Shown here: in pieces, positions 14,682 through 64,000 of the stretch
Numbering within the stretch: position 1 is the stretch's first letter
Layout: every line of letters begins with the position of its first letter
Translations under genes and position numbers: made by a program
NCBI GenBank assembly: GCA_038046785.1
Contig: JBBSVM010000003.1
Coordinates: forward strand, 74,073-138,072
Direction: 5' to 3'
DNA length: 64,000 nucleotides
Source of the DNA: Thermoplasmatota archaeon
GTDB lineage: Archaea > Thermoplasmatota > E2 > JACPAO01 > JAHFTW01
The notes under the pieces: model-generated
Told to the model about the DNA's origin: nothing
What the model saw: the letters and a program-made list of their open reading frames with translations, nothing else
Databases searched by the model: none

Positions 14682-14796
14682 CGTGCGGCCGACAGGAGTC
14701 CTGTTCTTGGGGGTTGCGAAGAGAAGGAGCACCTGAATCAAGCCAGCGCTCCAGATAATCTTTTTATGCTTGCCCGCTCCCCAGGGTTTGAAGACC

Positions 14797-15693: not shown

Positions 15694-15706
15694 ACCGGCG
15701 CACTCC

Positions 15707-15770
15707 GACCTTCCCTCTCCCCCTTTCCCCTCCCTTCCTTTTCTCGGTTTTCTCCTGTTGCCTTCTGGAT
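15707..15770 (+). repeat. ~60-nt polypyrimidine (CT) tract upstream of korA
   Basis: ccttccctctccccctttcccctcccttccttttctcggttttctcctgttgccttctgg in a 68% GC genome. Confidence 0.7.
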
Positions 15771-15804
15771 ACCTTTTCATAGCGCGCCCCCTGGCCCATC
15801 TGCC

Positions 15805-28231: not shown

Positions 28232-29488
<1,257 letters not shown>

Positions 29489-29505
29489 GGAGGCGCGCCG
29501 AGTTG

Positions 29506-29517
29506 AGGGAGTTTATC
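29506..29517. promoter_or_regulatory. TATA-like element between divergent icd and the histidine kinase gene
   Basis: gtttatcag / ctgataaac is ~25 nt upstream of the icd start at 29488. Confidence 0.4.
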
Positions 29518-29573
29518 AGGGTTGGGGAGGCACGCGCACTGGACCCATCGTCGCTGGGCCACGGACGAGGTTT

Positions 29574-31647
<2,074 letters not shown>

Positions 31648-31670
<23 letters not shown>

Positions 31671-33894: not shown

Positions 33895-33982
33895 AGCATT
33901 CGCCCCGAAAGGCTAAGGGGACCATGGGGTGTTCGACGAACACCCCGGGCGCCTCTTATGCTCGCGCCGGGCGTGTGGAACC

Positions 33983-38210: not shown

Positions 38211-38287
38211 CGAAGGGGCAAACGGGTGGTGGTTTAAGGGCTGGCGGGCGGGCGGTCCTTTTTTCCGCCCGGCGCCCTGCGCGCTCC

Positions 38288-39745
38288 ATGGCAAAGGCGC
38301 GGCAGGGTGGGGCTGAACAGGGATCCGACTTCGAGAAAGGGCAGGGCCCTGCCACGCGCACCGAGCGCGACTCGATGGGACCCATGGAGGTCCCCATCGA
38401 CGCCAAATGGGGCGCTTCGACGCAGCGCGCCGTCCTCAACTTCCCCGTCTCGGGCGCGGCGCTGCCGCCGGAGTTCCTGCGCAGCCTCGGCCTGGTCAAG
38501 TGGGCCTGTGCCCTCGCCAACAAGCAGCTCGGCGTGCTCAAGCCTGACGTTGCCGACGCCGTCGCCGACGCGGCACTTTCCATCTACCAGGGCGAGCACC
38601 TGGACGAGTTCCCGGTCGATGTGTTCCAGACCGGCTCCGGAACCTCGAGCAACATCAACGCGAACGAGGTCATCGCGCACCTCGCGACGCAGAGCCTCGG
38701 CCTCGACGTCCACCCCAACGACCACGTCAACTTCGGCCAGTCGAGCAACGACGTCATCCCGACCACGATGCATGTCGCCGCCGTTCTCCAGATTGAATTG
38801 GAATTGGTGCCCGCCCTTGAGCACCTGCACGCCTGCCTCGCCGCGAAGGCGACCGAGTTCGACGGCGTCGTCAAAGTTGGCCGCACCCACTTGCAAGACG
38901 CCGTCCCCATCCGGCTCGGCCAAGAGTTCGGCGGCTACGCGCGCCAAATCGAGCTCGGCATCGCCCGCGTCCAGGCGACCATCCCCGGCCTGCTGGAGCT
39001 GGCGCAGGGTGGCACGGCGCTTGGCACTGGCCTCAACGCCCACCCCAAGTTCGGCGCCGCCGTCGCTGCGAAACTCGAAGAGGCGACCGGCTTCAAGTTC
39101 CGCGAGGCGGTCAACCATTTCGAGGCGCAGGCCAGCCGGGACGCTTACGTCTTCGCTGCCGGCGCCCTCGACACCGTCGCGGCGAGCCTGATGAAAATCG
39201 CCAACGACGTCCGCCTCATGGCATCCGGCCCGGACTGCGGCCTGGGCGAACTTCTGCTGCCCGCCATCCAGCCCGGCTCCAGCATCATGCCGGGCAAAGT
39301 CAACCCGGTCATCTGCGAGGCGGTCACCATGGTGGGCGCCCACGTGCAGGGCAACAACCTCGCTGTGCGCACGGGCGGCCAGTGGGGTCAGCTCGACCTC
39401 AACGTCATGCTCCCGATGATGGCGCACAACCTCCTCGAATCCATCCGCCTGCTCGCTTCGGTGAGCCGCGTCTTCGTGGACCACTGCCTCGCCGACACGA
39501 AGGCGAACGTGGAGCGCGCCACCGGCAACGTCGAGCGCTCGGTGTCGATGGCGACCGCGCTCAACCCGCTCATTGGCTACGACAAAGCGGCCAAAATTGC
39601 CAAGGCGAGCCAGGCGGAGCGCAAGACGGTGCGCGAGATTGCCTATCGCGACTCAGGATTGACGAAAGCGCAGGTGGACCAGGCGCTCGACCCCAAGGCG
39701 CAAACCATCCCCGATGAGAAGCGCGTTGCGAGCGGTGGCGGATAA
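38288..39745 (+). CDS. fumC: class II fumarate hydratase (fumarase/aspartase family)
   Basis: GSSIMPGKVNP signature, SSNDVIPTTMHVAA, N-terminus RTERDSMGPMEVPIDAKWGASTQRAV. Confidence 0.85.
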   Translation: MAKARQGGAEQGSDFEKGQGPATRTERDSMGPMEVPIDAKWGASTQRAVLNFPVSGAALPPEFLRSLGLVKWACALANKQLGVLKPDVADAVADAALSIYQGEHLDEFPVDVFQTGSGTSSNINANEVIAHLATQSLGLDVHPNDHVNFGQSSNDVIPTTMHVAAVLQIELELVPALEHLHACLAAKATEFDGVVKVGRTHLQDAVPIRLGQEFGGYARQIELGIARVQATIPGLLELAQGGTALGTGLNAHPKFGAAVAAKLEEATGFKFREAVNHFEAQASRDAYVFAAGALDTVAASLMKIANDVRLMASGPDCGLGELLLPAIQPGSSIMPGKVNPVICEAVTMVGAHVQGNNLAVRTGGQWGQLDLNVMLPMMAHNLLESIRLLASVSRVFVDHCLADTKANVERATGNVERSVSMATALNPLIGYDKAAKIAKASQAERKTVREIAYRDSGLTKAQVDQALDPKAQTIPDEKRVASGGG

Positions 39746-39746
39746 C

Positions 39747-39812
39747 CTGGGACGAATGCCCCAATACGGGAAAACCTTGGGAGGAATGCCCCTCTCTTCC
39801 TATATGCCCTGA
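39747..39812 (+). promoter_or_regulatory. direct 19–20 nt repeats (aacc(t)tggga[cg]gaatgcccc ×2) plus the TATA box cctatatgcc upstream of regulator paralog 2; candidate operator
   Basis: The two copies are ~30 nt apart. A related ggggcgaatgc sits in inverted orientation upstream of paralog 1 (~33897). Confidence 0.35.
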
Positions 39813-39828
39813 ATGTTGCCTGGGCAGC

Positions 39829-41946
39829 ATGCGCGTCTCCTGGCCGCCTCGGCGGCGACTCGTTGCTTCCCTCTTTCTTGCCTTTGGATTGACAGTTGTC
39901 TCGTTGGCTGCCGCATCGGGGGGACAAGACGATGCCGAGCCGTTGCCAAGCCGCATCCAACTTCCGCTGCCCAATGGCGGCGACAGCGCCCGCTACGAGG
40001 AGCGTCTCGACGGTGAATCAACCGGCTTCTTTACCCAGAACTGGGGCGAAGAGGTGCCCCTCGCCGACGGCCAGGGCGTTTGGCACCGCACCCACCATGT
40101 TTCCTCGCGCTCCGAGACCGAAGCAGAGACGGACGGCTCGCTGGCGTCGAAGCTCTCCCTTGCCGTTGCCCGACTCGTCAGTGATGCTCACTGGCTGGAT
40201 GGGGAGACGTTGGAGATTCTGGCGGAGTCCACCGGAGGCGGCGGGCAGGCGTCGTCCAGCTCCAGCGCGCTTCCACTTGTTGGATCGAGTGAAAGCCAGA
40301 GCAGCGTGACCATCCGGTACGATTTTGACGCACAGCATTCCTGCTTCCTGCTTCCGAAGCTCTGGGCCGGCATCGACCTGGAGGAAGCCGTTCAAATCAT
40401 TGATTGCGGGAACGAGGAGCAGCTGCTTCGCGCCGTTGCCTGGGAGGATGTGCGCGGGGTGCGGGCGCTTCGCTTGGACCTTGAAACACCCGGCGGGGAC
40501 CGAGCGCCGCGCTCCTTCTGGGTCCATCCCGACTTGCCCTTCTATGTCAAAACGGCAAGGACGAGCGACGGGGAACTCAAAGAGACCGTGCTCGTCGGCG
40601 TGGAGCGGGGCGAGAAACCTTGGTTGGAGAACGCTCCTCTGCCGACGCTGCCTGTCCCGCCCGCCCACCTGGCGAAGCGCGAAGTGTGGGGTCCCTCCGA
40701 GGCGGGCATCGAACACCCTTTCCCGCTTTCCTCCGCCTGGGTTGTGGCACGCGATCACGCGACCTACGACGGTTTGCGCACCTTCCTTGGGGAGCACCCG
40801 GAGGCGCGTGTCTGCCGCGCCAACTACGACCAACGAACCGAAGGGGAACGGGTGAGCCGTTCCTGGATGTTCCTTGTCGTCGCAGAGAACGGGGATTCCA
40901 TCCACCTGATTGCCCAACGCACCGTTGCGCCCGTTGGCTACGATGCCTTCGCATTGCTTGGCCTGGACGCACCCACTCCCGAGCAGGCAATGGATGACGT
41001 CGTCGAGCTGGATGCGTTCGCCGCAGAGAGCTGCCCGCGACCCTCAGAGATGGCATCGCAGCTGCCCAGCGTGGCAAGCGGCTGGGCGTCCTGGAAAGCG
41101 TTCACGCGCAACACAGAGGACCCCAACAGCTGGTCCTTCAACATCGACCGCGACAGCGGATTCTATCTGACCGTCGGGCAGACCGGATTCTCCCGGCCGG
41201 CCGAGAGCCCGCTGCGACCCTCCAACACGCAAGGCACTTTCCAGTCCCAGCACCTGACGTTCGATGCGTCGGGGCAAATCTCCAGCTTCGGCATCGAAGA
41301 GGGGGTTTTCGCCTCATCCACCGGGGGGTTCCAGGCCGCCGTCGTCAGCGAACAGGAGACCCCGCCCGTCCTCGCCCTCGCCGGTTTGAGCCTGCCCTCG
41401 GCCCCCGCGGCGGCTGGATTTGGCCTGCTCTCGCTTCTGGTCGCCTTGGGCTACTACCTGCTTCCGGTCCTGAAAGGGGGCGCCGTTGGCCTCTTCAGCC
41501 GCGTGCAGGAAAGCGCCCTGTTGGAGCACCCGGCGCGGCGGCGAATCGTCGATGCCGTCCACGCGCAGCCCGGCATTCACTTCCAGGAATTGGTGCGAGC
41601 CCTCGGCTCCGGCCAAGGCGCAACAGAACACCATGTCCGGAAACTCGTGGCGGCGGGCCTGCTCGTGCGCAAAGCCGGACCTGGATTCACTTGCTACTTC
41701 GCACCCGGCCAGCGCGACCTTCACGCGGCGGCTCCAGCGCTCAAAGCTCCAGCAGCGCGCCGCCTTCTCGAAGCCGTGCGGGAAACCCCTGGCCTGTACG
41801 GAACTCAGGCTGCACTGCATCTCGGACTGGATGCTTCCACGGTCAGCTACCACGCCAAGCGCCTGGAAGATGCGGGGCTCATCTCGATGGAGAAGCAAGG
41901 TCGATTGGTTCTCTTGCGACCGACGCAGGTCAACGTTCAAGTTTGA
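39829..41946 (+). CDS. membrane-anchored tandem-wHTH regulator paralog 2
   Basis: Collinear similarity to 33983–36253: GIEHPFPLSSAWVVARDHATYDGLRTFLGEHPEA, LFSRVQESALLEHPARRRIVDAVHAQPGIHFQELVRALGSGQGATEHHVRKLVAAG, ...STVSYHAKRLEDAGLI. TATA-like cctatatgcc ~25 nt upstream. Confidence 0.6.
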   Translation: MRVSWPPRRRLVASLFLAFGLTVVSLAAASGGQDDAEPLPSRIQLPLPNGGDSARYEERLDGESTGFFTQNWGEEVPLADGQGVWHRTHHVSSRSETEAETDGSLASKLSLAVARLVSDAHWLDGETLEILAESTGGGGQASSSSSALPLVGSSESQSSVTIRYDFDAQHSCFLLPKLWAGIDLEEAVQIIDCGNEEQLLRAVAWEDVRGVRALRLDLETPGGDRAPRSFWVHPDLPFYVKTARTSDGELKETVLVGVERGEKPWLENAPLPTLPVPPAHLAKREVWGPSEAGIEHPFPLSSAWVVARDHATYDGLRTFLGEHPEARVCRANYDQRTEGERVSRSWMFLVVAENGDSIHLIAQRTVAPVGYDAFALLGLDAPTPEQAMDDVVELDAFAAESCPRPSEMASQLPSVASGWASWKAFTRNTEDPNSWSFNIDRDSGFYLTVGQTGFSRPAESPLRPSNTQGTFQSQHLTFDASGQISSFGIEEGVFASSTGGFQAAVVSEQETPPVLALAGLSLPSAPAAAGFGLLSLLVALGYYLLPVLKGGAVGLFSRVQESALLEHPARRRIVDAVHAQPGIHFQELVRALGSGQGATEHHVRKLVAAGLLVRKAGPGFTCYFAPGQRDLHAAAPALKAPAARRLLEAVRETPGLYGTQAALHLGLDASTVSYHAKRLEDAGLISMEKQGRLVLLRPTQVNVQV

Positions 41947-47432: not shown

Positions 47433-49721
47433 CTATTTGCCGCTGCGCAGAAGATTGAGTGCGCTTCCAGCCCGGAACCATGCGATCTGGTCGGCGCTGA
47501 AGCTGTGCTTGGCCGCAAACGATTCGGTCTTGCCATCCTTGTGGTGCAAGGTGACGGTGAGCGGCTTGCCGGGGGCGAGCGTGGCGAGGCCTGTGATGTC
47601 GATGCGGTCCTCTTCCTGCACCTTGTCGTAGTCGGCCGGGTTGGCGAACGTCAAGGGCAGCAGTCCCTGTTTCTTCAGGTTGGTCTCGTGGATGCGGGCG
47701 AAGCTGCGAACCAGGACAGCGATGCCGCCGAGGTGGCGCGGCTCCATGGCGGCATGCTCACGCGACGAGCCTTCGCCGTAGTTCTGGTCGCCGACGACGA
47801 CCCATTGGATGCCCTTCGCCTTGTAGTTGCGCGCCACTTCGTGGTAGAGCTTGGTCTTGCCGTCGAGCAAGTCCTTGCCGCCGCCGGCGGACCCGGTGAA
47901 GGCGTTAATGGCGCCGAGGAACATGTTGTCCGAGAGGTTCTCCAGGTGGCCGCGGAACTTGAGCCAGGGTCCGGCGGGGCTGATGTGGTCCGTCGTGCAC
48001 TTGCCCTTCGCCTTGAGCAGCAGCGGCGCGCCAAGAATCTCCTTGCCGTTCCACGCTGCGAACGGAGTGAGGAGCTGGAGGCGCTTTGAGGTCGGACTGA
48101 CGCTGACGGTCACGCCCCCGCGCGGGGCGACGTAGCCGTCGGGGTCCGGGACGAAGCCCTTGGCGGGGACCTCGGGCGCCTGCGCTGGCGCCTTGAGCTT
48201 GAAGCGCTTGCCGTCGGCGCCGACCAGGTCGTCCTTCGTGGGGTCAAAGTCGAGCTTGCCCGAGAGCGCGTAGCCGATGACAATCTCCGGGCTGCCGATG
48301 AAGCAGAGCGTGTGGGCGGAGCCGTCGTTGCGCTTCGGGAAGTTGCGGTTGTACGACGTCACGATGGTGTTCTGCTTGGCCACCGCGTTGGCGGGGCGAT
48401 TCCACTGGCCGATGCAGGGGCCGCAGGCGTTGGCGAGAACGGTGGCGCCCGCCTCCATCATGGCTTTCATCTGGCCGTCGCGCTGGATGGTGAGGTGCAC
48501 CTGCTCCGAGCCGGGGGTGACGAGGAAGGGCACCTGGACTTTGAGGCCGTGCGCAGCCGCCTGGCGGGCGACGTCGGCGACGCGCTCCATGTCCTCGTAA
48601 CTGGAGTTGGTGCAGGAGCCCACGAGGGCGGAGGAGATGTCGTTGGGGTAGTTCTCCTTCGCGACGGCGGCCTTCACGGCGCTCACCGGGCGGGCGAGGT
48701 CCGGCGTGTGCGGACCAACGAGGTGCGGCTCGAGCGTCGAGAGGTCAATCTCGACGACCTGGTCGAAGAATTTCTTGGGGTCGCGCGCGACCTCGGGGTC
48801 AGCGACCAGCAGCTCGGCGTGCGCTTTGGCGGCGAGGGGAACGAGCGCCGCGCGCGCCGTCGACTCGAGGTAGCGGTCCATGCGGGCGTCGTGCGGGAAA
48901 ACGCTGGTCGTGGCGCCCAGTTCCGCGCCCATGTTGCAGATGGTCGCCTTGCCGGTGGCGCTGATGCTGGCGCAGCCGTCGCCGAAGTATTCGATGACGG
49001 CGTTCGTGCCGCCCGCGACGGTGAGGATGCCGCACAGCTTCAGGATGACGTCCTTGGGCGCGGTCCAACCGCTCAGCTTGCCCTTGAGGTGGACGCCGAT
49101 GAGTTTGGGGTGCAGGACCTCCCAAGGGTAGCCAGCCATGACGTCCACGGCGTCAGCCCCTCCGACGCCGGAGGCGAACATGCCGAGGCCGCCGCCGTTC
49201 GGGGTGTGCGAGTCGGTGCCGATGACCATCTGGCCGGGGAAAGCGTACTGCTCGAGGACGACCTGGTGAATGATGCCGGCGCCGGGCTTCCAGAAGCCAA
49301 GGCCGCACGCCGCGGAGGCGCTGCGCAGGAAGTCGTACACTTCTTTGTTGTCCTGGTTCGCCTTGAGCAGGTCGGCGGAGGCGCCCACTTCGGCGGCGAT
49401 GAGGTGGTCGCAGTGCACCGTCGTCGGCACCGCCGTCGCGGGCTTGCCCGTCGTGAGGAATTGCAGAATCGCCATCTGCGCGGTGGCGTCCTGCATCGTG
49501 ATGCGGTCGGGGCGCAAGTCGAGGTAGCTGGTGCCGCGGTTGAGCTCGGCGCCGGACGGGTTGTCGAGGTGGCTGTAGAGCAGCTTCTCGGCGAGGGTGA
49601 GCGGGCGGTTGAGGCGGCGGCGCACGACGGCGAGGCGCTTGGCCATCGCGTCGTAGGTGGACTGGACGAAGGCGGGCGTGGAGGCGAGCGGGTCGGCCGC
49701 GACGGTCACAGATTGCGCCAT
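47433..49721 (-). CDS. acn: aconitate hydratase (mitochondrial-type aconitase A family)
   Basis: 762 aa. CDHLIAAE. Cysteine ligands in GSCTNSSYEDM and ANACGPCIGQWNR. Confidence 0.95.
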   Translation of the reverse strand: MAQSVTVAADPLASTPAFVQSTYDAMAKRLAVVRRRLNRPLTLAEKLLYSHLDNPSGAELNRGTSYLDLRPDRITMQDATAQMAILQFLTTGKPATAVPTTVHCDHLIAAEVGASADLLKANQDNKEVYDFLRSASAACGLGFWKPGAGIIHQVVLEQYAFPGQMVIGTDSHTPNGGGLGMFASGVGGADAVDVMAGYPWEVLHPKLIGVHLKGKLSGWTAPKDVILKLCGILTVAGGTNAVIEYFGDGCASISATGKATICNMGAELGATTSVFPHDARMDRYLESTARAALVPLAAKAHAELLVADPEVARDPKKFFDQVVEIDLSTLEPHLVGPHTPDLARPVSAVKAAVAKENYPNDISSALVGSCTNSSYEDMERVADVARQAAAHGLKVQVPFLVTPGSEQVHLTIQRDGQMKAMMEAGATVLANACGPCIGQWNRPANAVAKQNTIVTSYNRNFPKRNDGSAHTLCFIGSPEIVIGYALSGKLDFDPTKDDLVGADGKRFKLKAPAQAPEVPAKGFVPDPDGYVAPRGGVTVSVSPTSKRLQLLTPFAAWNGKEILGAPLLLKAKGKCTTDHISPAGPWLKFRGHLENLSDNMFLGAINAFTGSAGGGKDLLDGKTKLYHEVARNYKAKGIQWVVVGDQNYGEGSSREHAAMEPRHLGGIAVLVRSFARIHETNLKKQGLLPLTFANPADYDKVQEEDRIDITGLATLAPGKPLTVTLHHKDGKTESFAAKHSFSADQIAWFRAGSALNLLRSGK

Positions 49722-52780: not shown

Positions 52781-53830
52781 ATGATTTCTTCTCGCTTCGC
52801 GGTGGCTCTTCTGGTGGGCGTTCTGGTGGCCGGCGCAGTGGCCATCAACCGCCTTCAGGATCGCCCCGAACGAGGCCCCGGCCTTGGGGGCGAGCTCCCC
52901 CGCAGCCCCGACAGTCGTCCAAACAGCAGCGCCGAGCCCGCGATTCTGCCGTTCGGTCTCGACGCATCGGGAGCCCTCGCCTTGCCAGAGGACGCGCGAC
53001 CGGACTATGGCACATTCTGGATTGGACCGTGGACGCTGCAATGGGGTTGGAAAGACCCAGACGAGCAGTTGGCCCGCTTGCGCGCCGCCAACGTGACGCC
53101 CGCCGTCCACCTCTACTATTGGGGCGATGGCATCCGGCCCGCCTGCTTCGACGTTGGGTGCGACGGCAAGGACACGGCCATGTGGCGTCAGCTTGCCCAG
53201 CAGACCGCCGAGCATCTTGCGGGCGGCCCTGCCGTCGTCTTCTTGGAGACCGAGTTCAACAAGGCGGACGTCGCAATGCATGAGCCGCTCGATGGCCACC
53301 TCGCCGACATCGCCACCATCCTCCAAGCCAACCCGGACCTCACCGTCGTCCTGTCGTTTGGCAACTGGTACCCAACCGCGTGGCCGACTTGGGACCGCGC
53401 GGCCGCGGCAAGCGACGCGGTCGGTCTGCAGGCCATCTCCGGTCTCACGCGCAACGACGCAAACCATGCCGCTTCCCTGGCGACCTCCGCCGTGGAAGGC
53501 GCCCGGACGCTGAACGGGCTGTTTGGCAAGCCGGTCTGGCTCGACGATGTTGCCGTTTCGTCTTGGCCGGAGCCGGAGGGGCTGGATGTGCAGAAGACCG
53601 CCCTCGATGGGTTCGCCCAGAGCCTTGAGGACCTGCGCGCGGCTGGCGTCCAGGCCATCATCTACCGCACGCTGTACGACACGCCGGCAATGGATGGTTA
53701 CTATGGCGAGGCGGAGCGTCACTTTGGTCTCGCCTGGGCCGACGGCGGCCTCAAGCCGGGCGGTGCGGCGCTGCTTTCTGCGCTGCATCCCGAGGCAACG
53801 CAAGCTACGCAAGGAGCTGCTTCGCAATGA
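52781..53830 (+). CDS. membrane-anchored putative TIM-barrel glycoside-hydrolase-like protein (tentative)
   Basis: N-terminal TM anchor. [11 protein letters not shown] and W/Y-rich motifs suggest a GH-like barrel. No confident family assignment. Confidence 0.4.
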
Positions 53831-54956
53831 CAAGCCGCTGGATTTCGCTCGTCCCCTCGTAAATCTCGGTGACCTTCGCATCGCGCATGAGCCGCTCGAC
53901 GACGTAGTCGGTGGTGTAGCCGTTGCCGCCATGCACCTGGACCGCCTGGTTCGTCACCCAAGTCGCCGTCTCGCTGGCATAGAGTTTGGCGCGCGAGCCC
54001 ATCTCGGGGGTAAGCGTGCCTGCATCGGCCGCCGCGGCCGCCTTGAGGACCAGAAGACGGGCCGCCTCGATGCGCACATCCATGTCGGCGAGCTTCCACT
54101 GGATGGCCTGGTTGGCGGCGATGGGTTTGCCGAACTGCTTGCGCTCGGCGGCATATTTTCGCGCCTCGTCGAAGCCGCGTGTTGCGATGCCGACCGCTTG
54201 CGCCCCGATGCTGATGCGGCTCGCGTTGAGGGTCGCCATGAGCGCCTTGAACCCCTCACCGGGCTTGCCCAACATGTTCTCCTTTGGGACCATCAAGTCG
54301 GTGAAGCTGAGGCGGGCAGTGTCGGATGCGCAGAGGCCAAGCTTGTGCTCCGCGCCATCCTTGTTGAATCCCTTCCAGGCGGCCTCGACGGCGAACAGGC
54401 TGATGCCGCGGTGGCCCGCGGTGGCGCCATGGTTGGGCTCGGTGCGGGCGGCGACAATGGCGGAACCGGCGTGGTTGCCGTTCGTGATGAACACTTTCGA
54501 GCCGTTGAGCCGATAGTGGTCCCCTTCCTTCGTGCCGGTCGTGGCCAGGGCTGCGACGTCGGAGCCGGCGCTCGGCTCGGTGAGGGCAAAGCAGCCCAGC
54601 CATTCCCCGGAAGCAAGTTTGGGAAGGAAACGCTCCTTCACGGCGTCGGTGCCGAACTCGACGATGGGGCTGGCGGCGACGCTGGTGTGCACTGCAACGG
54701 TGACCGATGTACTCGCGCAGGCCCACGCCAGCTCCTCGAGCATGAGGTTGTAGGCCACCTTGGAGAGCGGCGCACCGCCGTACGCTTCCGGAATGGTGGG
54801 GCCCAGCATGCCAAGCGCCGCCAGGTCGCGCAGGTTCTCGGCGGGGAAAGCGCCCGACTTGTCGAGCTTGCCGGCACGCTCTGCGATGGGGCCGCGCGCC
54901 AGCTCACGCACCGTCTTCTGGATCAGGCTCTCTTCCGGGCTGAGGCCGAACTCCAC
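53805..54956 (-). CDS. acyl-CoA dehydrogenase
   Basis: 383 aa; [12 protein letters not shown] and [13 protein letters not shown] motifs. Confidence 0.9.
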
Positions 54957-55696
54957 GCCGGTGCGACCCGGCGGCGCCTCTTGGCCGTTTGCCCCATCCC
55001 CTCCGTCTTGCGGTGCGCCTCCAACAAGGGAGCAAGCCCGCCCAGGATGCGGTTCTCGGCGCCGCGCAGGCGTTCCTCAAACGCGCTGCGGCCAATCCCC
55101 ATCGTCGCCGCCACATCCGCCGTCGTCGCCTGCCGTGGGGCGTTGTAGTAACCAGCACTTGCTGCGGCCTGGAGCGCTTCCGCCTGCTTGTCCGTGGGAG
55201 CATCGAGGGTGTGCGCCATCGACAGGAACAGCGATGCGAGGACGGTTTGCGGCTCCACGGTGCGGCGCCGCGTCACTTGGGTGGGCCAGCGCCGCGCCAA
55301 CTCGTCGAGCGCTGCCTGCTCCGGATGCGGTCCGCGGCCAGCTGGCCCAAACGCGACCGCGTCGTACGACTCCCACCCCGCCTTCACGCGCACCGGCTGC
55401 ATCCAGATGAAACGGTGCGCCTCAAGAGTGCGGCTCAGACTTCGCTCCGCCTCGACGTGCGGCTCCCAGACGATGACGCCGCCGCCGCGCAGACGCAGCA
55501 GACGAAGCGGCTTGAGGAGCCGGATGGCGGCCGCCTCGAATCCCGCCCACGCTGTGTCGGGAACCCGCACCTCGACCACCTCCAGCGTGTGGCCGCTCCA
55601 GCATTGCAATTCTGCCTGGGGCACGGCGCGGCTCAGACGAGCCAGAGGGCAGTCATGCTCGATGCGCACCGTGACCTGTCGAAGGGGGCCGTCCAT
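54923..55696 (-). CDS. transcriptional regulator with a C-terminal HTH_10 (bacterio-opsin-activator-type) DNA-binding domain
   Basis: [51 protein letters not shown]. Its stop overlaps the acyl-CoA dehydrogenase start. Confidence 0.6.
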
Positions 55697-55749
55697 GGAC
55701 GGGCAATTGCGGGTGGGATTTTGCGCTTTCCTTGCGCGGGACGGGACGC

Positions 55750-56550
55750 TTACCTGCCAGCGAACGCCGGCTTGCGCTTCGCCAGAAACGCCGCCATGCC
55801 CTCTTTCTGGTCGGCAGTGCGGAACCCCGCGCCAAACGCCTCCGCCTCCAACTCCAGAGCAGATGCAAGGTCCAGGTCGAGACCCTCATCCACGAGCCGC
55901 TTCACGGACGCGACGGCCAGTGGGCCGTTGACAAGAGCAGCCTCCGCAATCTTGCGCGCCTCAGCAAGCAACGTGTCGTGCGGCACCACTTTGTCCACGA
56001 TGCCAAGCCGCAGCGCTTCGTCCGCCTTCACGGAATCACCCGTCATGAGAAGCCATTTCGCCACACCGGGGCCGGTGCGGCGCGGCAGCCGCTGCGAGCC
56101 GCCGAAGCCTGGCACGACGCCAAGCTTCACCTCGGGTTGGCCGACGACCGCTTTCTCGGAGGCAACGAGGATGTCGCACGCCATGGCGAGTTCGAGGCCG
56201 CCGCCCAGCGCGTAGCCGTTGATGGCGGCGATGACCGGGCCGGGAAAGTCGGCAAAAACTTGCAGAGCATCTTGGCCGGCGAGGCTGAACTCGCGTGCTT
56301 CGTCGGCGCCGAGGTCTTTCATGGCAGAAATGTCGGCGCCGGCGACGAACGCTTTGCCAGCGCCGGTGACGATGATGGCCTTTGCCTTGCCGTGGAGTCC
56401 TGTCACAGTTTCGTGCAAGACGTCCAGGACGTCGGCATTGAGGGCGTTGAGCGCCTCAGGTCGGTTGATGGTAAGGGTGGCAATTCCGTTGTCGATTTGG
56501 GAAAGAAGGCTTGTCATCGATTGCCGAAGTCTTTGCTGGGCTTGAACCAT
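55750..56550 (-). CDS. enoyl-CoA hydratase (crotonase family)
   Basis: IVTGAGKAFVAGADI...GYALGGGLELAMACD. Confidence 0.9.
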   Translation of the reverse strand: MVQAQQRLRQSMTSLLSQIDNGIATLTINRPEALNALNADVLDVLHETVTGLHGKAKAIIVTGAGKAFVAGADISAMKDLGADEAREFSLAGQDALQVFADFPGPVIAAINGYALGGGLELAMACDILVASEKAVVGQPEVKLGVVPGFGGSQRLPRRTGPGVAKWLLMTGDSVKADEALRLGIVDKVVPHDTLLAEARKIAEAALVNGPLAVASVKRLVDEGLDLDLASALELEAEAFGAGFRTADQKEGMAAFLAKRKPAFAGR

Positions 56551-57045: not shown

Positions 57046-57540
57046 TTAGGCAGCGGCAGGCTCGATTTCCACCATCACCGTGGTCGCCTCGACGTTCATG
57101 CCATCAGAGACATGGACCTTGACGACCTTCCCCGCCATCGGCGCCTTGAGGTCGTTTTGCATTTTCATCGCCTCAAGGACGAGGAGGATGTCGCCCGCCG
57201 CGACGATCTGACCTTCTTTCACCTTGACTTCGACAACTTTGCCTGGCATCGGGGGTTTGATGCGGCCATCCTGCTTGCGGCCGCCGGCGCGGCTGCGCGC
57301 CAATTCGGGACGGGCGCGGCGCACCTCGAGGTCGAGCGCGCGCGGGCCTTCGGAGACGACGCCGTTGCGGATGGTGAACTCGAACGTCTTGCCGCCGATG
57401 GTCACCTTGGTATGGCCCTTGCCAAGCGTCTGGACTTTGGGTTCGTAGCAGGTGTCGCCGATGCAGAACTTGGGCCCATCGGCGTGCTCCTCCATCGTGA
57501 CGAAGTGCTCGCGGCTGCCCAACTGGAAGCTGTAGCGCAT
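57046..57540 (-). CDS. accB: biotin carboxyl carrier protein (biotinyl domain)
   Basis: EAMKMQNDL biotinyl-lysine motif. Confidence 0.85.
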   Translation of the reverse strand: MRYSFQLGSREHFVTMEEHADGPKFCIGDTCYEPKVQTLGKGHTKVTIGGKTFEFTIRNGVVSEGPRALDLEVRRARPELARSRAGGRKQDGRIKPPMPGKVVEVKVKEGQIVAAGDILLVLEAMKMQNDLKAPMAGKVVKVHVSDGMNVEATTVMVEIEPAAA

Positions 57541-59138
57541 TAGTTCATTCCCCCAGCGGCTTCGCGGCGACCTTTCTGGCCCCAGGCACTCAGGCGGCGG
57601 CGGCCGAACTGGTCCACACCGACATTCTTGGCGGCGGACTGCTGGAACTGGTAGGACTTCTGCACCATGGAGTCGATGCCGCCTGGTTCGTGGGCGAGCG
57701 CTGCGGCAAGAGCGGCGAGTTTGACTTTCGTCTCTTCGCTGGCGGCCTCTTCGACACCCATGAGCTTGTCGAGAATTTTGCGCTCGTCAAGGAAGCGCGT
57801 TGTCATCTCGCCTTTGCAGAACGCCTCGTCCTGGAAGATGACCTGGTGCAGTTCGCGGTTGGTGACGAGGTTGCCGAGATCGTATTCGGCAAGCGCGCGG
57901 CGCATCTTGCGAATCGCCTCGGGCCGGTCGGCGCCATAGCAAATGAGCTTGGCGACCATGGAATCGTAGCTGCTCGGGATGGTGAACCCAGAGTAGAGGT
58001 AGGTGTCCACGCGCACGCCGTTGCCGTTAGGCGGGATGTGGCGGCTGATGGTGCCGGGCGTTGGCATGAACTTGTTCTTCGGGTCCTCGGCGTTGATGCG
58101 GCACTCGATGGCCCAGCCGCGGCGGCGCGCATCGACCCATTTCTGGTCGTAGCCAAGCGGTTCGCCGGCCGCGATGCGGATCTGTTCGCGCACGAGGTCC
58201 ACGCCGTACACTTGCTCGGTGACCGGGTGCTCGACCTGGAGGCGTGTGTTGACTTCGTTGAAGTAGAGCTGGCCGCCGCCCGGGGCGTCGGTGTCGAAGA
58301 GGAACTCGGCGGTGCCCGCATTCCAGTAGCCGACTTCTTTGGCGAGCTTGCAGACGGCGGCTCCGACGCGGTCGCGTTCCGAGGCGGGCAGCGCCGGGCT
58401 GGGCGCCTCCTCGATGAGTTTCTGGTGGCGACGCTGCACGGAGCATTCGCGCTCGCCGTAGTGGACGACGTTGCCGTGTTGGTCGGCGAGGAACTGGAAC
58501 TCGATGTGGCGCGGGCGCTGGATGAATTTCTCGATGAACACCTCGCCGCGCCCGAAGGCCGACTTGGCTTGGCGCTGCGTCGCCGCGAGAGCAGTGGCGA
58601 GCTCGGCTTCCGAGTGGACCACCTGCATCCCCATGCCGCCGCCGCCGAAGGCCGCCTTGATGATGACTGGGTAGCCGGTGAGCTTGACGACTTCTTGCGC
58701 CTCGGCGAGTGTTGCGACGAACTCGTCCTTGCCGGGCACGACCGGGACGCCCGCCTTGCGCGCGGCCACCTTGCTGGCAACCTTGTCGCCGAGGATGTCG
58801 ATGGGCTTGGGGGGCGGGCCGATGAACTTGATGCCGGCCTTCGCGAGTGCCGTGGCGAACTCGCTGCGCTCAGAGAGGAAGCCGTAGCCCGGGTGGACGG
58901 CGTCGGCGCCCACTTTCTGTGCCAACTCGACGATGGCGGGGATGTTGAGGTAGTTGGATTGGCTCGACTCATTGCCAAGCAGGTACGCTTCGTCGGCGTA
59001 GCGAACGTGCGGCGCCTTGGCGTCTTGCGGGGAATAGATGGCGACGGTCTGGATGCCGAGTTCGCGGGCAGTGCGCATGACACGCAGAGCGATCTCGCCA
59101 CGATTGGCGACGAGGATTTTCTTGAAGAGCGGTTTCAT
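57540..59138 (-). CDS. accC: biotin carboxylase subunit of acetyl/propionyl-CoA carboxylase
   Basis: MKPLFKKILVANRGEIALRVMRTARELGI...; ATP-grasp domain. Confidence 0.95.
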   Translation of the reverse strand: MKPLFKKILVANRGEIALRVMRTARELGIQTVAIYSPQDAKAPHVRYADEAYLLGNESSQSNYLNIPAIVELAQKVGADAVHPGYGFLSERSEFATALAKAGIKFIGPPPKPIDILGDKVASKVAARKAGVPVVPGKDEFVATLAEAQEVVKLTGYPVIIKAAFGGGGMGMQVVHSEAELATALAATQRQAKSAFGRGEVFIEKFIQRPRHIEFQFLADQHGNVVHYGERECSVQRRHQKLIEEAPSPALPASERDRVGAAVCKLAKEVGYWNAGTAEFLFDTDAPGGGQLYFNEVNTRLQVEHPVTEQVYGVDLVREQIRIAAGEPLGYDQKWVDARRRGWAIECRINAEDPKNKFMPTPGTISRHIPPNGNGVRVDTYLYSGFTIPSSYDSMVAKLICYGADRPEAIRKMRRALAEYDLGNLVTNRELHQVIFQDEAFCKGEMTTRFLDERKILDKLMGVEEAASEETKVKLAALAAALAHEPGGIDSMVQKSYQFQQSAAKNVGVDQFGRRRLSAWGQKGRREAAGGMN

Positions 59139-60025
59139 GGCTTCACCAGATTGGACGGATTGGATTCAGATTGACCAGATGGGGGAAGGAACGCCGGCAC
59201 CGCGAGGACGACGAGGGCCGCCTTCAAGGCGTCGAAGGGCAGGAACACCGTCGAGCCGAGGGCCACGGCGCGCGTCCAGGAGATTCCAAGTGTCGGCGCA
59301 AGGACCAGGACGCCGAGCGCGTGGACCATGGCAGTGGCGCCGAGCAGGACAATGAAGAGGTCCAAGGCGGGACGGCCGCCAGCGCGACGCAGCAACGCCC
59401 AAGCCAGCAGCGGAGCGAGCACCAGGAACGCGCCGGCAAACAGCCACGCGGCGTCGGCGCCGGACTGGTAGGCGCCGCCCGAGTCGCCGTCGGCGAACGT
59501 TCCGCCCGAGGCGAGGAAGAAGGCGCCGCCGGCAACGGCGACGAGGATGATAGTGAGAAGCCAAGAGGCGCGGGTGGCGAAGCGCGCGCCCCTTCCTTCG
59601 TTGCGAGCGCGAATGTAGGAGCCGACGAAGAGTGCTGCGAGCGGGAAGCCGAAAAGGTAGCCGGCGGTGAAACCGGTCCCCGCTGCGGCGTCCGGAACAA
59701 GGACGCGCCAGCGCTCGGCGGCGAAGAGGGAGTCGGGGTTGAAGCTGTCCGCGCTGGGGGCGAAAACATGGAGGCCGAGCGCCCCGGCGCCGAGATAGAT
59801 GAGCATCGATAGGATGCCGTAACGCGGGCCGAGCATGATGCCTGTGAGGAGGAACCCGACAGGTTGGAAGGTGAGCGGCACCGGCGTCCAAGGCAGGGGG
59901 ATGCTCAGTTGGGCCAGGAGGGCAGTGAGGCCGGCGAACCCGAAGGCGGCGCCAACTTTGGCAAGCCACGACGACTCCAGCGCCTGCGCGTAGAGGCGGG
60001 CCCGTGCGGTGCGGTACGCGCTCAA
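59135..60025 (-). CDS. bioY: BioY-family biotin transporter (ECF S-component)
   Basis: AQLSIPLPWTPVPLTFQPVGFLLTGIMLGPRYGILSMLIYLGAGALGLHVFA...TAGYLFGFPLAA. ATGA overlaps on both sides. Confidence 0.8.
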   Translation of the reverse strand: MSAYRTARARLYAQALESSWLAKVGAAFGFAGLTALLAQLSIPLPWTPVPLTFQPVGFLLTGIMLGPRYGILSMLIYLGAGALGLHVFAPSADSFNPDSLFAAERWRVLVPDAAAGTGFTAGYLFGFPLAALFVGSYIRARNEGRGARFATRASWLLTIILVAVAGGAFFLASGGTFADGDSGGAYQSGADAAWLFAGAFLVLAPLLAWALLRRAGGRPALDLFIVLLGATAMVHALGVLVLAPTLGISWTRAVALGSTVFLPFDALKAALVVLAVPAFLPPSGQSESNPSNLVKP

Positions 60026-63000
60026 CCCGCCACCATCGCCTTGCGGTCAAGCTCGGCGGCGCTCACCGCGAGAACCTTGCCATCGAGCATGAAGAACCGC
60101 ACGCCAACGCGGCCGGTCGGCCCCTCGACGGTGGCGCCGCCCGACCCATCCGGGATGACCTGGTGGGCGCGCAGGTCCGCCTTCAGGCCGACGCCGGCGC
60201 GCTTGAGAGCGGCTTCTTTGGCGGCCCACATGCAGGCCACCTCCGCCTTGGCGTCGGCGGCGGAGAGCAGGTGGCGCAGCTCGTTGACCGAGAAAGCCTC
60301 CTCCAGGAAGGCTTGCGGCCGCTCTTCGACGGTCTCCAAGTCGATGCCAATGGGAGCGTCGGAGAGGGCGGCCAGGGCGAGTCCGTCCCGGTGCGTGATG
60401 CTGAGCTGCAGCCCGGTGTCGGAGCCTTCGAGGAACAGCCGAGGCTTGCCCTTGTCGTCGCCGCGCACCTCGAAGTCGCGCAGGCTCGTACCGGGATGGG
60501 TGTCTACGGCCACTTGTTTGGCGGCGAGGCGGCCGGCGCGCCATTCGTCGGCCCGCTTGGCGACCGGGAACGCGCCGTGGATGCGAGACTCTTCCAGGCT
60601 GAAGTTGGCAGGCTCGCACGCCTTCGACTCGACGCGCACCGCGACGATGTGGGCGCGCTCCAGATGGGGCAGCGGGACGTCGGCGACATGGATGCGCAGA
60701 GCGTTCGGGGCGTGTGCAGCGCCGCCATTGGCTGCGGCACCGGGCGCGCTGGCGCTCCCCGTCGCAACCGGCGCCGAGGCGGGGCCGGTCTCCACCATGC
60801 TGAAGCCGGTGAGGCGGACCAGGACTGTGCCGTCGGAGGCGACCGCTTCCGCGTCGAAGGTGCGGTTGCCGGCCGGGTCGCGACCTGTAGGTTTGGCGCG
60901 CAAGCGCACATCGGGCGGCAGGATGGCGCTGTGCCATGCGACGCGGGCGATGCCGGCTGGGAGGCTCATGCGGTGCTCCGCCGCAAGGGTGCGCAGGCCG
61001 CAGGTCTGGAACAGCGCCTCGACCAGCATCGGCTCGGCCGCAAACGTAGCAGGCCCGGCACCGAAGTGGGGCTCGGTTGGGTTGCGGAACTGCGCCACCG
61101 CCTCGCCATCGAGGGGCCCGGCGAACTCCAGGACCTGGAAGCTCGGGCCGTGGAAGAAGGGCGGATAGATGCCGCCACGCTTGAGGCGTCGGTCGCAGAG
61201 CGGAACCGCCGCGCGGGGTGCAGTGGCGGGGACGGCCAAAGTGAGGGTCGCCTCGAAGTGCAGCTTCGGCTCGCCGACCGGCTTGCCGTCGGGGCCGTGG
61301 AATTGGCTGGTGAGCCGGCACGCCACCTTGACCTCCTTGCCCTCGAGCCGGGTCGCGGTGAGGATGCCGCGCTGCGGTGTCGCCTTGAGCTGCTTGAGCG
61401 GCAGGGCGAATCGGACATTCTCCGCCGCGACGACGCGGTGGTCGGCGGGGGCAAGAAGGAGCGCCGCCTCAGCGAACGCCTCGAGTCCGAAGACACCGGG
61501 AAGGTAGGGCACGCCGTCCACTTTGTGGTCGGCAAGGCCGGAGTCGCGCGCCTGATCCACGATGACGGTGGCGGTGAGGCTCTTGTCGGGGACGATGGAA
61601 TCGATGGATGAGAGCAGGCGGAAGCGTTCCCCTTTCTCGGTGAGGACCTGGTTGGCCACCTCGACGGCGAGGTCGAATCCCTTCTCGACCACTTGGCCGT
61701 CCGCGTCGATGGCGCCAAGCGTTCCCGCAACCACCGATTCGCGGATGCCGGGCTGGGCCAGCTCCGCGAGGAAGTGGCGCACGCCCTCGGCGGTCGGGAT
61801 GGGCGTCACGCCAGAGGCGTGCATGATCTGCAGGATGCTTCCCTTCGTCGCCATGCCCACTTCGCCCCACGGCCCCCACGCAATGGTGGTGCCGACGAGG
61901 CATTTGCGGCGCGCAGCCTCCTGTTTCACGGCCTTGGCGAGGTACTCGTTGGCGGCGGAATAGTCGGTCTGGCCGATGTTGCCAAAGCGGCCAGCCACCG
62001 AGCCGAAGGCGACGAGGAAGCTGAGTTTGTCGTCGCGGGTTGCCGCCATGAGGGCATCCCAGCCTTTCGCCTTGACATTGAAGACGGAATCGAACTGGGC
62101 GCGCTCCTTGGAGGCGAGGTCCTTGCTAATCTCCAGGCCGGCCGCGTGGATGACGCCGTCGATGCGGCCGAACTGGGCGCGCGCGAACGTGACCGCCTCG
62201 GCGACCGCTTTCGCATCGGCGACATCGACGGGGGCGTAGATGACCGTGGCACCGAGGGCCTGGAGCCGCTCCAGGTTGCGGTGGACTTCCGCCGCTTTCT
62301 GCTTGGGCGCGAGGGCCTTCTGGATGGTGACCGGAGTGACCTTCTCGCCGCGCGTTTTGAGGTCGGCAACAAGAGTGGTCTCCAACGCTTTCCAACCGGC
62401 TGCATCGAGCGCTGCGAGGGCTGCTGCGTCAGAGGTCAGCTCGGTGCGGCCAAGCAACAGGAGGTTGGGATTCTGCGCTGCGAGGGCGGCCAGCAACTCC
62501 ACGGTGATGCCCTGCGCTCCGCCCGAGACGACCAGGCTCTTGCGCTCGACATCGAGCTCTGCGGCAGGCAATTCCTGCGGCGCGACCTCGACGATGAAGC
62601 GGGCGCCGTCGCGGCCGTATGCGACCTCTGTGCGCTTGCCGCCGCGCGTCAGTTCGGCGAGGAGTTTCTTGGAGGCGTCGCCCGCCTCGGGGTGGATGTC
62701 CACCACTTTGACGACCGCTTGCGGCAGCTCCTTCTTGATGGCCTTGCCAAGCCCCGCGAGGGCGGCCATTCCAGCGTCGCGGACATGGTGCAGGCCGTGC
62801 GAGCCGTCCTGCCGCGTCACGACGAGGACGAACGTCCCCTCGGTAAGGCTTGCGCGGTGGAGTTTGGCAGCGTCGAAGAGCGGGCCGCAGCGCTCGAGCG
62901 CGGTCAAGCCGTTGCGGGAAGCGACCGCGACGAGGCCGACCGGAACCTGGCCGGAGGCGAGTTGATGGAGCGGGTTGAACCCTGCCGCCGTGAGGGCGTC

Positions 63001-64000
63001 GGCGATGTGGTTGTCGGGGTCGCCCAGCAGAAGGACCGGGCCGGGGCGCAGCGTGTTCGGTTCGCTGGGAAGGTCCTGGGGACGAACCTGCGGGATGCGG
63101 CGGAGAATGACGCCGGAACTGTCCACCGATTTTGCCGATGGTAGCGATGTCGGCATCTGCGAAATCGGTGCAATCGGTGGCTGGGCAGGGGCGGCAACGG
63201 GCGCACTGTTCTGCAGGACAAAGCCGGCGACCTTGCGCAGCGTGGGGTAGTCCTTGATTTGCAGCCCCTCGGCAAGCGGGATGTTGTAGGCGGTGCGCAC
63301 CTCGCCAAAGAGTTCCGCTTGCTTCACCGTGTCAATGCCCAAATCCGCCTCCATGTCGAGGTCGGGCTCCAGCATCTCGGCGGGGTAGCCGGTCTTGGCG
63401 GCAACGAGGTCGATGACTTTGCGCAGGACGGCAGCTTCGTCGCGGCCGCCGCCGGACGGAGTCGCAGATTTCACAGATTCGCTCTGCTTGTGAACTGCTG
63501 GGCTCTGCGCAATCTGCGGAATCTGAGACAGAGCCGGGGCAGGAGGCGTCGGTGCGACCCCGCCGATGCGGCTCTGCATGTACCCGGCCACTTTTGCAAG
63601 AGTCGGGTAGTCCTTGATCTGCACCGACTGGTCGGCAGCGATGCCGTAATGCTCGCGCAGCAGACCGAAGATTTCCGCCTGCTTCACCGTGTCAATGCCC
63701 AGGTCCGCCTCCATGTCGAGGTTGGGGTCGAGCAGGTCTTTCGGGTAGCCGGTCTTCTCAGCGACCACTTGGATGAGTTTGTCGAGGACATCGCCCGACG
63801 CCGCGACGGGAGCCGCCGGAGTCGCAGATTTCACAGATGGCGCAGAAACGGGAGTCTGCGGATTCTGCGGCATCTGCGGTTGGGTGAGCGTCGGAGTGGA
63901 GCCGCCTGCGGTCCGGGCCTGCATGTAGGCCGCGACCTTGGCGAGCGTGTTGTAGTCCTTGATCTGCACCGACTGGTCGGCCGCGATGCCGTAATGCTCC
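60022..64000 (-). CDS. C-terminal ≥1315 aa of a type-I PKS / PUFA-synthase-like megaenzyme: tandem ACP-like domains (≥3 in window), then KR, then PKS-type DH, then a C-terminal 4'-phosphopantetheinyl transferase domain; the N-terminus (KS/AT expected) is beyond the window
   Basis: ACP-like: DLDMEADLGIDTVKQAE[IL]FG repeated at ~100-aa period with Pro/Ala linkers. KR: SLVVSGGAQGITVEL...GRIDGVIHAAGL...YSAANEYL. DH: HKVDGVPYLPGVFGLEAFAEAA (HxxxGxxxxP). PPTase: GKPRLF...LSITHRDGLALAA...IGIDLETV...WAAKEAALKRAGVGL. Confidence 0.8.
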   Translation of the reverse strand, partial: EHYGIAADQSVQIKDYNTLAKVAAYMQARTAGGSTPTLTQPQMPQNPQTPVSAPSVKSATPAAPVAASGDVLDKLIQVVAEKTGYPKDLLDPNLDMEADLGIDTVKQAEIFGLLREHYGIAADQSVQIKDYPTLAKVAGYMQSRIGGVAPTPPAPALSQIPQIAQSPAVHKQSESVKSATPSGGGRDEAAVLRKVIDLVAAKTGYPAEMLEPDLDMEADLGIDTVKQAELFGEVRTAYNIPLAEGLQIKDYPTLRKVAGFVLQNSAPVAAPAQPPIAPISQMPTSLPSAKSVDSSGVILRRIPQVRPQDLPSEPNTLRPGPVLLLGDPDNHIADALTAAGFNPLHQLASGQVPVGLVAVASRNGLTALERCGPLFDAAKLHRASLTEGTFVLVVTRQDGSHGLHHVRDAGMAALAGLGKAIKKELPQAVVKVVDIHPEAGDASKKLLAELTRGGKRTEVAYGRDGARFIVEVAPQELPAAELDVERKSLVVSGGAQGITVELLAALAAQNPNLLLLGRTELTSDAAALAALDAAGWKALETTLVADLKTRGEKVTPVTIQKALAPKQKAAEVHRNLERLQALGATVIYAPVDVADAKAVAEAVTFARAQFGRIDGVIHAAGLEISKDLASKERAQFDSVFNVKAKGWDALMAATRDDKLSFLVAFGSVAGRFGNIGQTDYSAANEYLAKAVKQEAARRKCLVGTTIAWGPWGEVGMATKGSILQIMHASGVTPIPTAEGVRHFLAELAQPGIRESVVAGTLGAIDADGQVVEKGFDLAVEVANQVLTEKGERFRLLSSIDSIVPDKSLTATVIVDQARDSGLADHKVDGVPYLPGVFGLEAFAEAALLLAPADHRVVAAENVRFALPLKQLKATPQRGILTATRLEGKEVKVACRLTSQFHGPDGKPVGEPKLHFEATLTLAVPATAPRAAVPLCDRRLKRGGIYPPFFHGPSFQVLEFAGPLDGEAVAQFRNPTEPHFGAGPATFAAEPMLVEALFQTCGLRTLAAEHRMSLPAGIARVAWHSAILPPDVRLRAKPTGRDPAGNRTFDAEAVASDGTVLVRLTGFSMVETGPASAPVATGSASAPGAAANGGAAHAPNALRIHVADVPLPHLERAHIVAVRVESKACEPANFSLEESRIHGAFPVAKRADEWRAGRLAAKQVAVDTHPGTSLRDFEVRGDDKGKPRLFLEGSDTGLQLSITHRDGLALAALSDAPIGIDLETVEERPQAFLEEAFSVNELRHLLSAADAKAEVACMWAAKEAALKRAGVGLKADLRAHQVIPDGSGGATVEGPTGRVGVRFFMLDGKVLAVSAAELDRKAMVAG
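63300..64000. repeat. near-identical ~300-bp tandem DNA repeats encoding the ACP-like domains
   Basis: 63618–63657 is essentially identical to 63961–64000 (gatctgcaccgactggtcggc[a/c]gcgatgccgtaatgctc). agtcgcagatttcacagat recurs at ~63468 and ~63826. Confidence 0.8.

Follow-up and report, generated by a model that had tools for sequence, protein, structure and literature searches.

The 64,000-nucleotide stretch of archaeal DNA shown above (the window) ends inside a gene on the minus strand (from 60022 to past position 64000) for a multidomain synthase, whose acyl carrier protein (ACP)-like repeats have threonine at the position of the serine to which carrier proteins attach phosphopantetheine. 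Taken together, the sequence comparisons and structure models make it probable that these repeats are working carriers of an iterative type I synthase resembling PfaA and the enediyne polyketide synthases (PKSE), and that they are phosphopantetheinylated on the threonine. More generally, we lean towards the view that O-(4'-phosphopantetheinyl)-threonine is a natural linkage, which would be installed by a dedicated branch of the Sfp-type phosphopantetheinyl transferases (PPTases) on the tandem carriers of a large PfaA-like family, found in hundreds of species of both bacteria and archaea. Among the archaea, the system would be self-contained and self-activating, in organisms that are otherwise thought to have no ACP machinery.

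To our knowledge, every characterized acyl, peptidyl or aryl carrier protein has been described with phosphopantetheine on a conserved serine. A serine acceptor is also assumed by annotation rules, by activity predictions for the domains of polyketide synthases (PKS) and nonribosomal peptide synthetases (NRPS), and by PPTase tools. Carrier domains and the synthases called Type R (described below) are already known; what is new here is a family-wide set of carrier domains with threonine as the putative acceptor, accompanied by what appears to be a dedicated PPTase.

Carrier domains with threonine at the acceptor position

Translation of the gene from 63999 down to 60025, where it is followed by the stop codon (60022-60024), gives 1325 amino acids. 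The region 63040-64000, in which a first, sequence-only reading had pointed out the threonines, is the 5' part of this gene, which runs off the end of the window. The visible domains are, in order, a truncated carrier, two complete ACP-like domains, a ketoreductase (KR), a dehydratase (DH) and an Sfp-type PPTase, and like the stop codon they are all on the minus strand. Carrier domain 1 (63913-63999) is represented by its C-terminal 29 residues, identified by a domain hidden Markov model (HMM; match to residues 1-29), and 26 of the 29 are the same in the corresponding stretch at the end of domain 2. Domain 2 (63568-63789; residues 71-144) was identified by the Pfam PP-binding profile, by alignment and by an AlphaFold (AF2) model, and has the motif EADLGIDTVKQAEI, in which Thr104 is encoded by ACG at 63688-63690. 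Domain 3 (63211-63429; residues 191-263), found with Pfam and the domain HMM, has the motif EADLGIDTVKQAEL, with an ACG codon for Thr224 at 63328-63330. The sequence EADLGIDTVKQAE (DLGIDTVKQAE) is common to the two complete domains. The earlier statement that the acceptor serine is replaced in all repeats of the window, by an LGIDTV motif with an ACG codon, is accurate for these two domains, and the motif of domain 1 lies beyond the window end.

The assignment of these repeats as carrier domains is supported by both sequence and structure. The PP-binding profile (PF00550) matches two stretches of the translation (E=1.3e-15; 57.8 bits, with a cut-off of 20.8), and the conserved serine in (D)S(L/I), which is a feature of this profile, is a threonine in both complete domains. 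When the repeats are aligned by phmmer with solved structures of ACPs and peptidyl carrier proteins, the threonine falls exactly on the acceptor serine (e.g., DLGIDTV aligned with DLGADSL or DLGVDSI). The AF2 model of the carrier domain shows the four-helix ACP fold with a predicted confidence (pLDDT) of 92.3, and its helix II (residues 34-48) starts at the threonine. Its best matches in the PDB, by Foldseek, are ACPs, with TM scores of 0.80-0.87 and rmsd values of 1.4-1.8 Å.

The remaining domains of the fragment are those of a reductive type I synthase. The KR domain (61864-62532; Pfam KR, E=1.7e-30) contains the motifs SGGAQGIT and YSAAN, which were read in the window translation and also in a full-length ortholog, L005, described below. 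The DH domain (60787-61566) is of the PKS type (Pfam PS-DH, E=6.3e-12, and PKS_DH_N), and its sequence HKVDGVPYLP corresponds to the pattern HxxxGxxxxP. The C-terminal PPTase (60046-60564), which is fused in cis, contains the motifs SITH, PIGIDLE and WAAKEAALK, and matches the Pfam ACPS profile with 45.1 bits (cut-off 25).

The linkers between the carrier domains have repeats of their own. An exact 22-nt repeat (SVKSATP) is present at 63457-63478 and 63817-63838, and 9-nt tandem repeats occur in Pro/Gln-rich linker sequence (63504-63525; 63851-63879), despite the divergence of the carrier domains. These repeats suggest homogenization or slippage at the level of the linkers.

Distribution and conservation of the threonine motif

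Among the best 120 homologs of the window fragment, the motif occurs 366 times with threonine and four times with serine, and all four serine motifs are in a single canonical PfaA. A search with a single 79-residue carrier domain against 1.84 billion cluster representatives gave 5999 matches at E<=1e-3, of which 727 reach E<=1e-30. From 259 relatives, we extracted 996 carrier domains with the HMM; the acceptor position is threonine in 777 and serine in 208, in a sample that was picked for similarity to the query and is therefore biased, rather than a census. At the level of proteins, 204 of these relatives have threonine-type carriers only, 39 have serine-type carriers only, and three have both. 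Alanine is found at the site once, in a partly decayed motif, so that intact domains have essentially only threonine or serine. Arrays contain from two to seven tandem carriers, as do those of polyunsaturated fatty acid (PUFA) synthases.

When one genome of each GTDB species was scanned for DLGIDTVK, at least 576 genomic stretches with this motif were confirmed. Among the matches listed are Thermoplasmatota, Heimdallarchaeota, Elusimicrobia (including Elusimicrobium minutum), Acidobacteriota, Actinomycetota, Chloroflexota, Myxococcales, Spirochaetota and Gemmatimonadota. In 84 loci, the threonine is encoded by ACG (126 codons), ACC (125), ACA (12) and ACT (8). The use of all four codons across orthologous and paralogous copies excludes the idea, raised in the sequence-only reading, that ACG is an artifact of the assembly consensus, and it shows selection at the level of the amino acid. 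The replacement of serine by threonine at the acceptor site is therefore confirmed as a real feature of these proteins and, judging from the sequences, threonine is an ancient, family-wide trait.

It had been suggested that a single serine-to-threonine change was spread over near-identical DNA repeats by concerted evolution. Such a recent, local change (or an assembly artifact), with the real serine carrier located upstream, is a highly improbable explanation. The exact 22-nt linker repeat, and the 82% DNA identity (over 91 nt) between the ends of domains 1 and 2, are signs of some homogenization. However, between the complete repeats the identity is no more than 72% in DNA (over 206 nt) and 62% in protein (46 of 74 residues), and they are thus well diverged. 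Neither is the change local, since the 777 threonine domains come from more than 200 proteins, the motif is present in the 576 or more genomic stretches noted above, across many phyla of bacteria and archaea, and the carriers upstream in L005 are exclusively of the threonine type. Local concerted evolution and an assembly artifact are both rejected, in view of the absence of a long tandem array in the TRF output, an identity of 72-82% between the direct repeats, and the use of four threonine codons across the loci.

The conservation within the threonine-type domains is concentrated at the acceptor site. In an alignment of 744 such domains, the columns of E-A-D-L-G-[IV]-D-T-V-K-Q-A-E have conservation values of 0.89-1.00, versus 0.2-0.7 elsewhere, and the TGY of loop 1 is likewise 89-100% conserved. 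This pattern points to strong purifying selection on the acceptor site and on helix II, the recognition helix. By contrast, the arrays include a small number of carrier-like inserts in which the helix II motif is lost and the acceptor site is occupied by D, Q, G, I, P, R or a gap (e.g., LQNDLGLDQTSLASIWD). Non-functional copies therefore have a different appearance from the threonine domains. Decayed domains of this kind, with D, Q, G or I at the acceptor position, lie between or beside intact threonine carriers in P0025 (near residue 578), P0137 (near 1842), P0173 (near 1811), P0132 (near 1666 and 2193) and P0242 (near 1368).

Serine and threonine appear to be interchangeable in the vicinity of this family. 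When the motif is masked, serine versions are found within or next to the threonine family, as in domain 1 of P0226 (DSIKQAE), P0140 (DSVKVAE, five copies) and P0243 (DSVKQGE, four copies). With the same masking, none of the threonine domains is closer to the serine group. The serine-bearing relative P0140 also has a fused PPTase. The residue that follows the acceptor covaries with it by one methyl group, with S-I in 197 of 208 serine domains and T-V in 766 of 777 threonine domains, where the counts are not phylogenetically independent. The interchange of serine and threonine suggests that the hydroxyl is the functional group.

Several further observations concern the distribution of the family. 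The closest homologs of the synthase are all from metagenome-assembled genomes (MAGs) of Thermoplasmatota. Threonine-type PfaA-like synthases with a fused PPTase are also present in a Heimdallarchaeota MAG (L052), in an Asgard group archaeon (P0085) and in a MAG labeled as Methanobacteriota (L007). One locus labeled as Proteobacteria (L008) has the fused form of the archaeal type, and may reflect mis-binning. In two long-read MAG contigs (L064 and L079), the carrier arrays are split into several short, overlapping open reading frames (ORFs), probably due to frameshift errors in the repeats of long-read assemblies. Many short-read contigs stop inside the array, as the window does (e.g., L014, L021 and L030).

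The linked PPTase and the case for modification of threonine

Of the 57 loci in which 3 kb or more of downstream sequence is available, 53 have a PPTase, either fused to the synthase or encoded nearby. Fusion is seen in 13 loci, nearly all of which are archaeal (Thermoplasmatota or Heimdallarchaeota), and in most bacterial loci the PPTase is a separate gene, often located 4-300 bp downstream. In addition to matching the ACPS profile (PF01648), the window domain has the two-lobed fold and the catalytic His/Asp/Glu/Glu/Lys set of the Sfp-type enzymes; the profile for the N-terminal lobe (4PPT_N) scores 21.3, below its cut-off of 27. An alignment to Sfp shows that equivalents of Sfp H90, D107, E109, E151 and K155 are retained, and in 14 family members H90, D107, E109, E149 and K153 (alignment numbering; the last two are Sfp E151 and K155) are invariant. 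The AF2 model has a pLDDT of 93.9, and its best match in the PDB is the complex of Sfp with CoA and a peptidyl carrier protein (4mrt; TM score 0.78, E=8e-14).

The identity of this enzyme bears on the question of what is attached to the carriers, and where. We regard as quite improbable an arrangement in which the threonine domains are carriers with a different prosthetic group or point of attachment, i.e., another residue of the motif or another CoA-derived group. The lysine and glutamine after the threonine, and the TGY of loop 1, are also invariant. However, in its sequence, its catalytic residues and its fold, the enzyme linked to the carriers is an ordinary Sfp-type PPTase; a lysine at +2 is also found in PUFA carriers of the serine type (DSIKRVE); and the serine/threonine interchange is indicative of the hydroxyl.

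L005, from a Thermoplasmata MAG (108-kb contig), is a full-length ortholog with 65% identity across the whole of the window fragment, and shows what the complete synthase looks like. Its ORF (5018-14092) encodes the domain order KS-AT-KS-like-ACPx3-KR-DH-PPTase, where KS is ketosynthase (residues 61-486) and AT is acyltransferase (653-964); the KS-like domain is at about 1313-1510, KR at 2191-2413, and DH at 2496-2779. It has exactly three carriers, all with DLGIDTVKQ, and no serine carrier. The partner domains appear to be intact: the KS has its cysteine in DAACAS and its two histidines in HGTST and KSNMGH, the AT has GHSLG, and the KR and DH also look complete. The second KS-like domain (residues approximately 1300-1520), which Shulse and Allen designate as the chain-length factor (CLF), keeps its cysteine (NAACAST) and a GH motif (KGFTGH), and might be another active ketosynthase instead of a CLF. 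By comparison with L005, the part of the gene beyond the end of the window most likely consists of the KS-AT-KS part and one more threonine-type carrier.

The proposal that the real, serine-type carrier lies upstream is contradicted by this ortholog. The repeats of the orthologs, in which serine would have spoken against the sequence-only reading, likewise carry threonine. A serine-type carrier hidden upstream or elsewhere nearby was also rejected as a candidate after direct searches: there is no LGxDS motif in the six frames of the window or of 83 related loci (with flanks of up to 10 kb), and no AcpP-like ORF in either set, where an AcpP-based HMM matched only threonine-type domains at E values up to 10. 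Because archaea in general have been proposed to be without an ACP system (PMC3533463), the threonine domains are the only evident client of the fused PPTase.

Several considerations weigh against phosphopantetheinylation of the threonine. When the acceptor serine of E. coli ACP is changed to threonine, the resulting ACP(S36T) "cannot be post-translationally modified by 4'-PP" (PMC3340395), and phosphopantetheinylation of threonine is unreported in the full-text literature searched, which covers few subscription journals. The PPTases of threonine arrays show no identifiable specificity-determining change, in that their catalytic motifs (SISH, G[IV]D[LV]E, WxxKEAxLK) are identical to those of Sfp and of the P0140 PPTase. 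In bacterial members, a housekeeping AcpP acting in trans could in principle serve the synthase, and the domain counts given above carry the sampling bias already mentioned.

Two of these points, the S36T result and the literature, would also fit an explanation in which the threonine domains are never phosphopantetheinylated and are conserved pseudo-carriers, with a scaffolding, docking or regulatory role. The synthase would then work with a free serine-type ACP supplied in trans, or with intermediates bound to CoA, and the substrate of the PPTase would be a different one. The ACP-independent route of fatty acid synthesis proposed for archaea (PMC3533463) is consistent with such an arrangement, and the decayed inserts show that the arrays tolerate non-carrier modules. 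Nevertheless, we consider it unlikely. Within the domain, conservation is highest at the acceptor position and in helix II, unlike the pattern expected of a scaffold, and intact copies have only serine or threonine at the site. Moreover, no other carrier is found in the 83 loci or the window, the PPTase is fused or adjacent in nearly all of the assessable loci with no other visible substrate, and the number of tandem copies is that of PUFA synthase arrays. The suggestion that the repeats are non-functional structural units is likewise disfavored, since the motif columns of the threonine domains are 89-100% conserved and decayed inserts lose the whole motif. Of the interpretations in the sequence-only reading, the one that fares best is that of a PPTase that serves threonine, which is supported by inference; concerted evolution and an upstream serine carrier did not hold up.

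If the threonine domains are working carriers, as we favor, the synthase could operate as follows. The acceptor hydroxyl would be that of the threonine at the N-terminus of helix II, in place of the usual serine, and the Sfp-type PPTase, which belongs to the same protein in the archaeal branch and is the product of a neighboring gene in most bacterial members, would take 4'-phosphopantetheine from CoA and attach it to the threonine of each carrier. The AT would load malonyl units, and the KS, KR and DH would make an acyl chain, borne by the tandem carriers, that is reduced, partly reduced or unsaturated. The malonyl units would probably be supplied through the adjacent genes for biotin carboxylase and biotin carboxyl carrier protein (BCCP).

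These genes are part of a co-directional group directly downstream of the synthase on the minus strand, all identified by Pfam: a BioY biotin transporter (59138-60025), biotin carboxylase (AccC; 57543-59138) and BCCP (57049-57540). The same order follows the synthase in the ortholog locus L002, and AccC homologs occur in 29 of the 83 related loci. Based on these associations, the three genes probably serve to supply malonyl-CoA; no carboxyltransferase subunit was found in the scanned part of the window. Further downstream (53808-56550, minus strand), an HTH_10 regulator gene (54926-55696, minus strand) is flanked by genes for an enoyl-CoA hydratase and an acyl-CoA dehydrogenase.

The window is archaeal, judging from its genes. 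It encodes an Orc1/Cdc6 replication initiator (4460-6043, minus strand) and two ORFs of approximately 750 residues (33917-36253 and 39718-41946, plus strand) that are recognizable only at their C-termini, as an HVO_0163-type HTH and an ArsR/MarR winged HTH. These genes and the HTH_10 regulator, together with the archaeal ribosomal protein genes that adjoin the homolog in L001, identify the host from its sequence as an archaeon. Other genes are those for aconitase (47436-49721, minus), isocitrate/isopropylmalate dehydrogenase (28232-29512, minus), class II fumarase (37844-39745, plus), 2-oxoacid:ferredoxin oxidoreductase (15694-17664, plus), a class I aminoacyl-tRNA synthetase (12216-15146, minus) and a hybrid histidine kinase/response regulator (29325-31670, plus). 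A tRNA scan found no tRNA genes in the 64-kb window.

Implications and comparison with known systems

If threonine is indeed modified, a textbook modification gains a second natural acceptor, and there would be no grounds for continuing to score carrier domains as inactive when they have threonine. In that case, the PPTases that accompany them would be candidates for tools of orthogonal labeling or activation. One may speculate that the phosphodiester of threonine is chemically more robust than that of serine. A self-contained, carrier-dependent synthase, co-located with genes for malonyl-CoA supply, in Thermoplasmatota and Asgard-type archaea would also bear on the debate over archaeal fatty-acyl metabolism. 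Literature searches on the motif strings, on serine-to-threonine changes in ACP domains, on PUFA-like synthases of archaea and on follow-ups to the Type R work found nothing, in sources that cover few subscription journals.

The E. coli S36T mutant is the one direct parallel at the level of the residue, since the substitution is the same and at the same structural position. The mutant is an engineered protein, which is reported to be unmodifiable and non-functional (PMC3340395), whereas the threonine of the present family is its conserved natural state.

The alpha subunit of fungal type I FAS (fatty acid synthase) is similar in that the megasynthase and the PPTase that activates it are joined in cis, and fungal FAS (7bc4, E=2.6e-5) is the best sequence match of the window PPTase among solved structures. 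The two differ in structure, however: the C-terminal transferase domain of fungal FAS is AcpS-like and one-lobed, while the window domain is two-lobed and Sfp-like (TM score 0.78 with 4mrt, versus approximately 0.4 with AcpS or the FAS domain). The ACP of fungal FAS uses serine.

Enediyne PKSEs such as SgcE and CalE8 have the order KS-AT-ACP-KR-DH-PPTase, phosphopantetheinylate themselves, are iterative, and have a single ACP with serine. The present synthase resembles them, as they are generally described, in its domain order, in the C-terminal Sfp-type PPTase on the same polypeptide, and in a presumably iterative mode without an enoyl reductase (ER). It differs in its three threonine carriers and its additional KS-like domain, and does not belong to this group: the NCBIfam matches include no enediyne-type family, and no genes of an enediyne cassette are present downstream in the window.

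The best NCBIfam match is PfaA (TIGR02813), although the scores of both the window fragment (268.2 bits) and L005 (945.5 bits) are below the cut-off of 1010.1 bits. As in PfaA, tandem carriers are followed by KR and DH, and L005 has the order KS-MAT-tandem ACP-KR-DH, where MAT is malonyl-CoA acyltransferase. The carrier motif of PfaA (EADLGIDSIKRVE) is only slightly different from that of the window (EADLGIDTVKQAE). The differences from PfaA are the threonine in place of serine, the extra KS-like domain and the fused PPTase. No pfaB, pfaC or pfaD gene is found downstream in the window (where BioY, AccC, BCCP and enoyl-CoA hydratase genes are located; the upstream side of the gene is beyond the window) or in L001 and L002. 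In a distant member of the family, L003, an ER-KS gene is located upstream.

The family also corresponds to the secondary lipid synthases that Shulse and Allen (2011) called Type R, which are defined by a pfaA homolog with the order KS-MAT-CLF-ACP(3-6)-KR and a PPTase gene downstream, with unknown product (PMC3098273). Type R synthases were reported in Koribacter, Solibacter, Elusimicrobium minutum and Roseiflexus, and the Koribacter cluster includes an acetyl-CoA carboxylase (ACC) gene; the words "threonine" and "serine" occur nowhere in the text of that paper (PMC3098273). Our searches recovered the same phyla, ACC genes are again associated, and the architecture of L005 matches that of Type R, with the PPTase fused. 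The E. minutum MAG locus (L043) has four DLGIDTVKQ domains, with a PPTase gene 14 bp downstream, and loci of the Korobacteraceae, Solibacteraceae and Bryobacteraceae bear the same threonine arrays; the comparison at the level of sequences covered these loci. The archaeal branch differs in having its PPTase fused in cis. The family described here thus matches the Type R secondary lipid synthases.

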